Origin: Eledone cirrhosa
Taxonomy: Eukaryota
Direction: 5' to 3'
NCBI GenBank assembly: GCA_964016885.1
Contig: OZ024747.1
Coordinates: 25,048,001 to 25,112,000, forward strand
DNA: 64,000 nt
Each line of letters starts with the position of its first letter. Position 1 is the first letter of the stretch. A model generated the notes under the pieces. It was not told the DNA's origin. It ran no database searches and saw only the letters and a program-made list of their open reading frames with translations. A program made the translations under genes and the position numbers. This document shows, piece after piece, positions 10,347-58,300 of this stretch.

Positions 10347-13300
10347 CTGGTGCCATGAAAAACAAAAACAGTTTTTGTTAAGATTATATGCATATGTATG
10401 TGTGTGTACAATTAATTCTGATTTTAAACAAATCAGTGTCAACTTCCTGTCATTCTAAACATGGAATAACAGGAAGAGAAAAGGCAGCAGCTCAGAGGAT
10501 GAGGAAAGTAGCAGTGAGCATATGGGGGGGGGGGGGGTAGCAGTGAGCAGAGGGAAGAAGGCAGCAGAAAGAGTCTCTTGTTGATTATGGAGCAGAAGAG
10601 AAGAGATACACTAAAAGTCAAGAGGAGAAGATGGGCAGTGATTTGGTTGCCATTGCTTAGCCACCAATAAGAGGTTGTTACTGTTCAGGATGAAAACACC
10701 CAATCAATATTGAACACCATCAATTCCTCCTTGTCAAGGCTATGTTCACTGAAGGTAAATTAATGTGAGGCCTCTTCTTTAAGGTGTAATTGTTCTTATA
10801 TAAATATCTACTTTTAAATTTGCTCTGAGATTATATTAATTTGTTCCAAGATTATTTCAATTTGCTTCAAATTTATTTTAATTTGCCCTGAGTAATTTGC
10901 TTTGATATTTTAATTTGCTTCTAGTATATTTAAAATTGGTTCGGGGATATTTTTATTTGTACTTTAAAAGATGTAATTTCTGTTTGTAATTTCTTTGGAG
11001 TTTATGGTCAGTCATATCATGAAGGATTGCCATATATTCTTGGGTTGTACTTGCTTAGCAAGTTTTGATATAAAACTGTGATAGAAGTGAGTGTGTGTGT
11101 GAATAAAATTTCAATTATTTACAACAGAACAACCAGTCTGAATGTGTTGTCAATGGTTAAATGCTACACATGGTTAAATGCTAAATGAGAGGCAGTGGTC
11201 AGTCATCAAGTAAGAACAAACTTGGCAGACAGTGACTACACTGCACAGTCAAACTACATTTGGGAGGCAGTGACTACACTGTCAGACTACACTTTGAATC
11301 TGTGACTATACAGTCAGAACACACTTGAGATGCAAGGTTATCAAGAATTTTTTTACCTTTCCATTGTCCACGACGATGACTTTATCACATTCTACAATAG
11401 TGTTCAATCGGTGAGCAATAATCATGATGGTACAATTGGCGAAACATTCCTTTATGGTCTTCTGAATGAGAGAATCAGTTTCAGCATCAACAGAGGATGT
11501 AGCTTCATCAAGGACCAAAATCTGTAAATGGTGAAAAGAAAGTAAAATTATATAATTAAATATATCTGACTTTCCATCCATCTGTTCCATCAAGTCCATT
11601 CATCCATTTGTCCAATTTGTCTGGCCAGTCTATCTGTCAGACATATCTGGTTTGTTTGTCCTGTCCAATCATCCAGCCAATCCAACCTTCCACTCATCTG
11701 TCTATCTCTCATGTCCATCCATCTACCTATCTATCTTATTTATTTGTATTGTCCCCTTTTCTTGTGTGCCCTTGTGGCTAATAAAGAAATCTATCTATCT
11801 TATTTATTTGTCTTTATCTCTCTCTCTCTCTCTCTCTCTCTCTCTCTCTCTCTCTCTCTCTCTATATATATATATATATATATATATATATATATATATA
11901 TATATATATATATATATATCTACCTACCTATCTATCTATATTTTTTACACGACTGAATGTAAAATCCCCGGCATGTCTTTGTATTGTCCTCTTTTCTTGT
12001 GCGGCCTTGTGGCAAATAAAGAAATCTATCTATCTAGCTAGCTAGCTTACCTTGCTTGCACGAAGTAGAACTCTTGCCAAACACAGTAACTGGCGTTGAC
12101 CCACAGAGAAGTTCTTCCCATCTTCTTCAACATCAGAATCTAAACCATTTTTCAATGCAGTGATCTGGAGAAGAAGTTAACATAATGAATAAATATACAT
12201 ATGTATGTATGTATGTATGTATGTATGTATGTATGTAGAGTTTTCAAGTCGCTGGTTGGACTAAAAAGTCACACTCGTTCAGCGCATTGGTAGGGGTTCT
12301 CCTAGATGGATATAAAGTAGTGGCCGTACTCGAAAACGAGTTGGCAGCCACCATGTATGTATGCATATGTATGTGTATATGTGTGTGTGTGTGTGTATAT
12401 ATATATATATATATATATAGTTATGTAATAAACAACATAAGGCAATTATTCCATTTACCAGTGGTTTCTTAAAAGCAAAAGATTTTGCTTTCAATCCTCA
12501 GAATGAAAAAATCCTGGTCTGTTTATTGAATTTGGATTTTAAAATCCAAATTCAATAAACAGACCAGGATTTTTTCATTCTGAGGATTGAAAGCAAAATC
12601 TTTTGCTTTTAAGAAACCACTGGTAAATGGAATAATTGCCTTATGTTGTTTATTACATAACTATTAAGCTCTGTTACCTACATAGAGCACTCTTTTTTCC
12701 TGGACTTTTCCAACAGAATTACTTCACATATATATATATATATATATTTTATTATTATTATTATTATTGTTGTTAGGGGCGGTGGATTGGCAGTATCGGT
12801 AGAGGGTCGGACACCATGCTTTGCAGCATAGAGTTACGGCCCTTGCCATTCTGAGTTCAAATCCCGCCGAGGTTAACTTTGCCTTTCATCCTTACAGGGT
12901 CGATAAAATAAAGTACCAGTAATGCACTGGGTAATTGCTGGCCTTGTGCCAAAAGTAGAAACAATTATTATTATTGTTGTTATTGTTATTATTATTTTTC
13001 TTTTTCGTGCAAGGGCCATACTCAATAACGTATGGAGTCAACAGCCATCCAATAAAGTTTTTCTTTGTTTTTTTGTAAATCGAGAGATTTATTAAGACAT
13101 CTCTCTAGAAGGTCACTCTGATGTAAAACCTACGACTTCATTTGCATCCAATGATGAAGACCAGTTCTACCTTTTGGATAAATGCATTCGATGTTCAGAG
13201 AGTGGGATTGCCCTATGCAAAGCCTTCCTTCACTTAAAAAAGCTTCAAGCGCAGGTATTGCTTGATATGTGACATTGCTGGCCATAGGTAAGTCCCTAGC

Positions 13301-55300: not shown

Positions 55301-58300
55301 GAATTCCTCTTATTAATATAATCTTCTATACACAATCATACACACCCGTGTATATTTACCTATCTATATCTATATATATATATATATATATAGTATTTTC
55401 CGTAGTGTTGTAATATGAATATTACAATATTCTGATGAAATGACAGTTGATAATAACATTGAAATATTGAGTGTCTGCATAATTAATACTTTGTAGATAG
55501 CAGCTGTTTTCAGGTTATGTAACTGTTATTGAAACACGTGTCAATAAATTCCTTTTAACTGAACTGTATCCATTTAAATCCTTCTATATATATATATATA
55601 TATATTTATATATATATATATCATCATCATCATCATTTTACGTCCGCTTTTCCCTGCTTGCAAGGGTGGGACGGGAACTGATTCTGGCTTGATTTCTACA
55701 GCTGGATGCCCTTCCTAACACCAACCTCATTTACAGTGAGTGCTGGGTGCTTTTTTGCCGTGGCACCTCCACGACCACTTTACAGTGGAATGATAGGGAC
55801 CCCAGTCCCATCTCATTTCTACAGCTGAGTAAACTGGAGCAATGTGAAATAAAGTGTCTTGCTCAAGGAAACAACACATCACCCGGTCTGAGAATTGAAC
55901 TCACAACCTTTCGATTGCAAGGCCAATGCTCTCAATATGTATATATATATATATATATATATATATATACACACATATATATAAACTAATATATACACAC
56001 ACACATATATAAACTAATATACACACACACACACACACACATACATATATATATATATATATATATATATATATATATATGGAGGCACATGGCTTAGTGG
56101 TTAGAGCATTGGCCTTGCAATCGAAAGGTTGTGAGTTCAATTCTCAGACCGGGCGATGTGTTGTTTCCTTGAGCAAGACACTTTATTTCACATTGCTCCA
56201 GTTTACTCAGCTGTAGAAATGAGATGGGACTATCCGGGAGCTTCCAACAGTAATGGTTGCATTCTTTAAGGGTATGTCAATATTTATTTATAAAACTGCT
56301 CTATATTATATTTTATCTGATGAAAGCACACCATAATTTAACTTGGTGTCCTTGAAATATGTATAATGAAATAAATATGGTTTTATAAATATAGTTTCCA
56401 TTTGTTAATATCGTATATATATATATATATATATATGTATATATATATATATTTATATATATAGAGAGAGAGATATTTATATATATATATATATATATAT
56501 ATTTATATATATATATTTATATATATATATATATTTATATATATATATATATATATATATATATATATTTATATATATATATATTTATATATATATATAT
56601 ATATATTTATATATATATATATATATATTTATATATATATATATATATATATATATATAAATATATATATATATATATAAATATATATATATATATATAT
56701 AAATATATATATATATATATATATATAAATATATATATATATATATAAATATATATATATATATATATATACGTGTAGACGCGTTCTTGAGACTAGTAAA
56801 ATGAGGTATCCTCTTGATAAGTCGGCAGACCTCGCAGGGACTCTATATCTTTATGATATATTGTTTTTGTTTATGCCACGAAACTACGTAGTCGAGGAAT
56901 TTAGGAGCAGTTTAGGTATGATACATTTTATTACTAATTATATCTAAATGTTTCTTCTCTCTTCATAATGTATATATATGTATATATATATATATATTTA
57001 TATATATATATATATATATATATATATATATATATATATATATATAAACAGGGTAAATGCAGAAATTAATAGAGATGAGACAAACAGACAGCAATATAAC
57101 AAAATGCGAATATTTACCCTCTTGTCAATTACTTTGACAGATTTTCTTCTATATTCTATTCCAAACTTATTTACAAATATCTGAAAAATATACATCATAT
57201 ACATCATATATATATCATCATCATCATCACTATTTTACGTCCGTTCTTCCACGCTAGCATGGATTAGACGGGTTGTCCTGTTGTGGGCAATGCCAGGTCA
57301 GGTGACCATGTCTTGCTCATACGGGAACTGATTTCTACAGCTGGATGCCCTTCCTAACACCAACCTCATTTACAGTGAGTGCTGGGTGCTTTTTTACCAT
57401 GGCACCTACACAACCACTTTACAGTGTGGACTGGGTGCTTTTTTGTCATGACACCTCCACGACCACTTTGCAGTGGGAGGGGATGGGGGCATATTGTCTT
57501 ATGCTTCAGCTTCAGCTTGTACCCGTGGGAAGTCGGGTCTTCTGTATTAATATATACGTATATATATATATACACATATAGCACTACTGATCATCCTGCA
57601 GCTTTGTGTATGCATGTGTGTGCGAGTGTGTATGTGTGTGTGAGTATGTATGTGTGTGTGAGTGTGTATGTGTGTGTGTACATGTTATTATCATCATCAG
57701 TCTACATCCACTTTTCCATGCTGATAAGCATTGGATGGGTCATTACAATCCAAGTGAATTCTTATTTGGAGTTACAGCCTTCATAACTGTATCACCTGTC
57801 TGAAATATTAACTGTGTGGTTAAGGAATTTGCTTAGCAACTATGTGATTTCAGATTCCATTCCATGGCACAGCAATTTGGGCAAGTGTCATCTTCTATAG
57901 ACTCAGTTGACCAATTCTTTGTGAGTGAAATTTGGTAGATGGAACCTATCCAGAAGCCCATTATATGTGTGTGTGTCTATGTGTGTGTGTGTGTGTGTGA
58001 GATGAGTGTGTGTGTGAGTGAATGTGTGTGTGTGAGTGTGTGTGTGTGTGTGTGAGATGAGTGTGTGTGTGTGAGATGAGTGTGTGTGTGCATCAGTGAG
58101 TGTGTGTGAGAGAGAGAGAGAGAGAGAAAGAGAGAAAGTGTGTATTTGTGTCTGTGTTTGTTTATCTAAACTATAATAAAGTAAGAAGCACGAGACTGCG
58201 TACAGTTTATAATTTTTTATCCCCTTAGTAAAATAAGTTGAATTACTTTGTATAAATAATTGTTTCTATTTTAGGCACAAGGCCAGCAATTACCCAGTAC

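Follow-up and report, generated by a model that had tools for sequence, protein, structure and literature searches.

Hammerheads in the ends of Penelope-like elements (PLEs), many hammerhead families per genome, targeting of TA repeats, inverted arms, tails, and retrozymes as dependants of PLEs have all been described previously. As far as the accessible text of the papers cited here and below goes, genomes have been found to contain several consensus hammerhead families, mostly as single motifs and probably related to truncated PLEs, and a U3-A8 core variant has been described in Schistosoma PLEs (PMC4209133). In Acropora, 16 hammerhead families were reported (PMC7229834), and PLEs were proposed as the movers of retrozymes without long terminal repeats (non-LTR retrozymes) (PMC7229834; 10.64898/2026.07.22.740005). 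What the hammerhead does in PLE transposition and which enzymes move animal retrozymes are both left open in the papers cited. A literature search for hammerhead with octopus or cephalopod found no study of these motifs in cephalopods, and a curated Octopus vulgaris repeat annotation contains Penelope-like families, with ribozymes unmentioned in its accessible text (PMC13282606). Here we analyze hammerhead motifs in a 64,000-nucleotide stretch of Eledone cirrhosa contig OZ024747.1 (positions 25,048,001 to 25,112,000, forward strand), referred to as the window, in which every motif sits between exons, in the introns of a minus-strand ABCC-type gene. The folds are very probably hammerheads at PLE 3' ends, with five families representing the ends of coding elements and three being non-coding, retrozyme-like, and likely mobilised by the same enzymes. 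Both are known kinds of element.

Hammerhead folds and the coding elements behind them

The window was searched with a strict descriptor (CUGANGA, stem II, GAAA, a self-complementary stem III, UH, and a stem I of at least 4 bp). Nine type I hammerheads were found, exactly on nine of the ten sites that an earlier note on this DNA had called complete, whereas 60 local dinucleotide shuffles of the window gave one fold in total (0.017 per shuffle). The hammerhead folds in these introns are therefore real, and the note was right to class them as type I and to expect them above the shuffled frequency. The tenth site, at 56809 (family G), has the core UUGAUAA instead of CUGANGA, with the 3-8 pair kept as U-A. 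This variant of the type I core (CUGANGA, GAAA, and UH with three stems) is fixed in the family, as it was present in 99 of 100 cores among the matches listed and in 151 of 152 fully read cores. A second fixed variant, CUGAUGU (A9U), occurs in family H, where it was found in 24 of the 31 cores in loci retrieved with the H query. The H fold at 17772 had been considered decayed along with those at 24565, 30303, and 30909; the last three are indeed decayed, but the core at 17772 has the family form, and only its stem I is clipped to 3 bp through truncation. Descriptors for U3-A8 and A9U gave no match in the window or in 400 kb sampled from the genome, being too strict for G and H. A short self-complementary stem III, claimed for all motifs, is present in the strict folds, but those of family A (ACCACTGGT) and family F (ATATGTAT), both absent from the note's list, are imperfect palindromes.

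The motifs group into eight families, A to H (Table 1), which, as had been proposed, have only short chance matches in common beyond the core (best other E value, 0.02). The module at 24565 groups with 48096 in family C (79% over 75 nt). Covariation across copies, which the note's reading implied, was found in the one family tested, B, using 28 of 34 cores after exclusion of 6 that had indels or were misregistered. Five of 13 stem pairs were altered on both sides and 93% of cells were paired; the covariation score exceeded all 500 shuffles, but the pair-count measure did not (220 of 500). For most motifs the full three-stem fold was not obtained by monomer folding, which may point weakly to dimer or protein-assisted folding.

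Judged by their flanks, five families (A, D, E, F, and H) represent what is left of coding PLEs at the 3' end after 5' truncation, because longer genomic copies have reverse transcriptase (RT) and GIY-YIG frames upstream at fixed distances. The PLE link suggested in the note thus stands, but its description of every module as a small non-coding mini-element does not apply to these five of the eight families; it holds for B, C, and G, for which no full-length PLE ending in the module was found. In all five coding families, RT and then GIY-YIG lie upstream of the terminal repeat, with frame breaks in all copies read, and the 5' ends differ from copy to copy. By motif, four are Hydra-type (A, E, F, and H) and one is Neptune-type (D). 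In family D, RT and GIY-YIG frames lie between two same-strand ribozymes that are 4,202 nt apart, and an inverted copy is adjacent (L204). These frames matched Pfam RVT_1 and GIY-YIG and have a CX4CxxC linker, DKG, and GLKF, consistent with the Neptune pattern (CX2-5CxxC, DKG, and GxKF); from motifs rather than a tree, D would fit either Neptune or Nematis, which have the linker in common. In family E, ribozymes recur with a period of 3,517 nt around the frames (L201), and the Hydra motif set (CxCX5C linker, CxxC, CxH, RWK, and DKT) is complete (L201 and L135). The pieces of A, F, and H contain the linker, CxxC, and CxH, and RWK and DKT were not seen in those pieces. A family-specific sense-strand GIY-YIG frame was present upstream in 3 of 25 loci of D, 10 of 30 of E, and 9 of 30 of H, and RT as well as GIY-YIG pieces precede the H module in two loci (L209 and L210). 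In A and F, flanks of up to 1.5 kb were free of frames, and GIY-YIG appeared upstream in two of five longer stretches for each. Within the window, the GIY-YIG fragment at 37.9 kb, a microsatellite-like 3' untranslated region (UTR), and the 3' end with the ribozyme at 31185 are collinear on one family A copy, and so the fragment and the ribozyme match one interrupted element. In a protein-cluster atlas, the RT matched unnamed eukaryotic clusters, the top one mostly from Cnidaria.

Two further features of the coding families were observed. Long family A copies (L247 and L248) have a second, diverged hammerhead 1.1 to 1.3 kb upstream of the terminal one, which has G at the cleavage position in the copies examined and is predicted to be inactive. 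The 3' UTRs of families A, E, and F include TA/TG microsatellite-like sequence (L009, L116, L126, and L242, and 36665-37382 in the window), so these elements themselves carry part of the genome's simple-repeat load.

The anatomy of the insertions is regular. Of 212 loci, 196 have a tract of (TA)5 or more in the 350 nt that follow the core, compared to a background of 24%, and each family shows the tract at one or two set distances. In the two families found by the core pattern alone, the tract was present in 52 of 55 loci. This bears out the proposed TA targeting. In the window, nine of ten modules adjoin such a tract at one end at least, as had been noted, the exception being 24565. The same had been said of two GIY-YIG fragments; the one at 37.9 kb does abut TA, but the one at 8.6 kb is 334 to 357 nt from the nearest tract. 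All five coding families include insertions that are truncated at the 5' side, arranged in tandem or inverted, and tailed at one end. Among loci with two scored ends, a short end was combined with a tailed one in 36 of 37 from the coding families and in 28 of 32 from G (of the other four G loci, an extra end was seen in three and a pair of short ends in one). This agrees with the tail and inverted arms described in PMC8557442 and with the two RT start sites and both-strand priming of PMC11167929.

From this anatomy and PMC11167929, the following mechanism is proposed. The GIY-YIG nuclease would cut (TA)n, and the RT would begin at either of two internal start sites that lie downstream of the ribozyme, traverse the intact ribozyme, and in most cases end prematurely. 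Priming from both cut strands, with one arm from each start site, would give an inverted pair of which a single arm is tailed. Usually only the 3'-most 150 to 400 nt would be left, and the ribozyme module could then be mistaken for a free-standing mini-element. Cleavage is predicted to act on tandem precursor RNA, with the ribozymes working as dimers or aided by protein, and could provide unit-length or circular templates.

Non-coding families and alternative explanations

Families B, C, and G, with units of 341, about 250, and 595 nt, respectively, are non-coding, retrozyme-like elements that are likely mobilised by PLE enzymes. The longest ATG frame in a unit dimer is 22 to 46 aa, and no shared upstream frame was found in 25 B, 30 G, and 30 C loci or in 26 further C loci. 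B and G consist of tandem units, each with a type I hammerhead and each preceded by a further unit or by flanking sequence; in G arrays, up to 8 units follow one another on the same strand. Family C is an old family of dispersed monomers with defined ends, and no tandem organisation was seen in the loci read. Two side observations concern G. A 75% relative of its unit lies at positions 1878-2194 of L122 (oriented to the E module in that locus), which suggests an older G-like family, and sequencing runs of unrecorded kind under three other organism codes contain a nearly identical unit (L143:1000-1594).

Family G stands out in showing the full PLE insertion signature on a non-coding family. In 79 sampled loci (51 with two or more units, 134 units), unit divergence was 0.42% within a locus versus 1.93% between loci, in both arms. 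Twenty locus-private variants were common to all covering units, 12 of them spanning both arms, and the 8 units of one locus (L320) have variants in common. Units are thus far more alike within than between insertions, indicating that one RNA template, possibly circular, was likely copied repeatedly per insertion; a monomer circle would be the simplest model. The likeness could also stem from a multimeric transcript of a homogeneous array or from DNA that was duplicated later, and in one array (L252) variants alternate with a two-unit period, as from a dimeric template or DNA-level duplication. End-to-start joins of G in contigs of four sequencing runs of unrecorded kind were considered as a sign of circles or expression and rejected, since tandem DNA alone explains them. 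No RNA run was listed among the sequencing runs that contain the G unit.

Among shared G variants, A>G accounted for 19 of 50 types versus 8 for T>C (p 0.001), compared to 9 of 115 unit-specific variants. When the private variants were taken by themselves, the two strands did not differ significantly (8 A>G versus 5 T>C, p 0.09), and families A, B, D, E, F, and H together gave 6 private shared variants with 1 A>G, an underpowered comparison that lends no support. A-to-I editing of G templates before copying may be taken as a lead only, to which RT error bias is a rival. We tentatively propose, as possible rather than probable, that G is a recently active retrozyme whose insertions arose by PLE rolling reverse transcription of a single circular RNA, from both cut strands and two start sites, with some templates A-to-I edited beforehand and the edits visible as an A>G skew in the variants common to all units of an insertion. 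A literature search by title found nothing matching genomic evidence of rolling or edited templates. If the proposal is true, G insertions document directly, at the level of the genome, the proposed pairing of PLEs with retrozymes, and they offer a ready substrate for testing the purpose of the hammerhead.

Of the alternatives, the one that survives best is that B, C, and G, too, belong to coding PLEs as their ends, the long copies having escaped sampling, or that they are moved by long interspersed elements (LINEs) or amplified as DNA satellites. We consider this unlikely, although A and F seemed non-coding until flanks beyond 1.5 kb were examined, the two-unit period in the G array is what DNA-level duplication would produce, and the old family C offers neither tandem nor tail evidence. 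Against it stand the absence of anything but units or flank upstream of B and G, the defined 5' end of C with no shared upstream sequence in 26 loci, and, in G, ends at two fixed points that abut TA (in 98 of 110 arm ends) together with inverted arms, a combination not known from satellites or LINE partners. Far less probable is that the eight families are all small non-coding ribozyme elements independent of one another; copies are mostly short and lack coding sequence, no sequence is common to the modules, and B, C, and G do fit, but five families run upstream into RT and GIY-YIG frames of their own at fixed distances with 5' ends that vary among copies, and the idea is refuted for A, D, E, F, and H. 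Chance folding in AT-rich repetitive DNA, which short stems I (4 to 8 bp in the window) and the lack of a hammerhead family among 150 of 166 Rfam matches listed might seem to favor, is refuted by the shuffle controls in the window and in the genome sample, the compensatory changes, and the position in PLE terminal repeats.

Several points weigh against reading the folds as hammerheads at PLE 3' ends. In the one PLE assayed, insertion in vitro did not need ribozyme cleavage (PMC11167929), and cleavage and expression of the present families are predictions. The clade labels come from motifs, not a tree, and none of the five Hydra-type frames scanned was recognised by Pfam. Queries for C, E, and H stopped right at the TA junction or close to it, which biases the TA counts of these families, and 18 loci were dropped because the core was unrecognised. 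The covariation in family B mainly reflects one split between two subfamilies. Comparison with six long coding copies from five families gave no coding partner for B, C, or G, and trans-mobilisation therefore rests on insertion anatomy; any of the three could have rare long parents outside the sample.

Features of the window and abundance in the genome

Table 1. Hammerhead modules and PLE pieces in the window
Feature	Position	Strand	Hammerhead	Affiliation and remarks
GIY-YIG-like fragment of another PLE family	8598-8975	(-)		49% to PLE-like frame in L122; tied to no module; does not abut TA
Family A inverted pair, 5' ends together, between TA tracts	12417-12740		12449-12508(-), 12573-12632(+)	Hydra-type PLE 3' end; short end left, tailed end right; coding parent in L247, L248
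Family H inverted pair, left arm tailed	17391-17936		17772-17878(+)	Core CUGAUGU, long stem II; Hydra-type PLE 3' end; L209, L210
Decayed family C relative	24470-24610	(-)	24565-24598	Core UUGAUGA
Family B inverted arm and partial tandem	30236-31075		30569-30614(+), intact; 30909-30954(+), 30304-30344(-), decayed	341-nt non-coding unit
Family A 3' end	31137-31448	(-)	31185-31244(-)	95% to L248
Microsatellite-like 3' UTR, same family A element as 31185 3' end	36665-37382	(-)		78-84% to L248 and L247, collinear; parted from 3' end by later insertions
Family A GIY-YIG fragment	37784-38022	(-)		CxCX5C linker; 93% to L248
Family C, 5'-truncated	47996-48145	(-)	48096-48131(-)	Old ~250-nt non-coding unit
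Family D inverted pair with tail	54910-55381		55045-55083(-), 55160-55198(+)	3' end of 4.2-kb Neptune-type PLE; L204
Family E, short inverted tail piece and 3' end	55351-55587		55428-55546(+)	92-nt stem II region; 3' end of 3.5-kb Hydra-type PLE; L201
Family F 3' end	56229-56416	(+)	56309-56373	Hydra-type PLE 3' end; L242, L243
Family G, truncated copy	56771-56971	(+)	56809-56898	595-nt non-coding tandem unit; U3-A8 core

The window also contains an exon of a HHIP-like gene at 903-1973 (-), for which four of the five best species-named matches are from bivalve molluscs (about 50% identity), and a minisatellite at 15754-16476 with 21 copies of a 34-nt unit. A largely intact LINE, which we take to be RTE-like, lies at 31794-35297 (-) between pieces of the family A copy and has endonuclease and RT frames and C-terminal zinc fingers. 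A broken mariner-type transposase is present at 41116-42192 (+), and a short interspersed element-like repeat with tRNA-like heads is present at 37639-37707 (-) and 56090-56147 (+).

All families have further copies in the genome. Copies of D, F, and G were counted by core pattern, with 5,901 (exact), 13,312 (at most one mismatch), and 5,962 matches, respectively, compared to 0, 1, and 0 for the reversed controls. A DNA search, with 40 candidates scored for each family, gave first-look candidate counts of 715 for A, 3,580 for B, 2,243 for C, 1,031 for E, and 2,842 for H, and the best other copies were 100%, 87 to 90%, 79 to 85%, up to 100%, and 95 to 98% identical, respectively. An evenly stepped sample of forty 10-kb stretches (400 kb) held 18 strict folds versus 0 in 8 shuffles. 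This is a density of 45 per Mb, which extrapolates to about 80,000 to 213,000 folds in the 3.0-Gb genome. With 9 folds versus 2.9 expected, a count that includes inverted pairs, the window is at about three times the genome average. By eye, the 18 sampled folds (L280 to L319) represent about 11 families, about 8 of which are not in the window, and one family gives 5 of the folds. The diversity that the earlier note had described is thus neither peculiar to this intron nor, given the many families per genome already published, new. The window is a typical, slightly rich sample of the genome's repeat load and not a new system, and the main value of family G is as a test case.

Comparison with known systems

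The closest likeness is to the PLE pseudo-LTR hammerheads of Cervera and de la Pena (2014, PMC4209133), which are also of type I with a short palindromic helix III, come in several families per genome, are mostly single motifs with opposite-strand pairs 100 to 700 bp apart, and include the U3-A8 variant. Unlike in the accessible text of that study, stem II regions here reach about 90 nt (E and H), family H has a family-wide A9U core, and the density is about 45 per Mb.

Families A, E, F, and H resemble the Hydra clade PLEs of Craig et al. (2021, PMC8557442) in the RWK, DKT, CxCX5C linker, CxxC, and CxH motifs, the C-terminal nuclease, the hammerheads, insertion into (TA)n, inverted arms, and a tail at one end. 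As that clade is described there, the present families differ in their long 3' UTRs (0.7 to 1.7 kb, partly microsatellite-like), in the two hammerhead copies in the 3' UTR of family A, in the 3.5-kb length of family E (versus generally under 3 kb), and in tails of up to about 170 nt (versus 30 to 40). Family D has in common with the Neptune (or Nematis) clade, by motifs only, GLKF, DKG, the CX4CxxC linker, RT followed by GIY-YIG, and terminal repeats with a hammerhead. The tail would be explained by two internal RT start sites as shown in vitro for Poseidon PAc (Frangieh et al. 2024, PMC11167929), for which both target strands were also cut and extended. However, the PAc start sites are not homologous to the target, whereas the element ends here have a short TA that merges with the tract.

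Like non-LTR retrozymes (Cervera and de la Pena 2020, PMC7229834; Li et al. 2026, 10.64898/2026.07.22.740005), families B and G are built of tandem units that do not code for protein and that each contain a single type I hammerhead, but no parent pseudo-LTR was found here. G differs from the retrozymes described in the accessible text of those papers in its 595-nt unit (versus circles of 170 to 400 nt) and its U3-A8 core, in being known here from DNA alone, and in directly showing the two-site, inverted PLE signature. This genome combines many folds with Hydra-type coding families that are young and with a non-coding family, also young, that shares their insertion signature, and it is good material for studying the role of the hammerhead and the mover of retrozymes.

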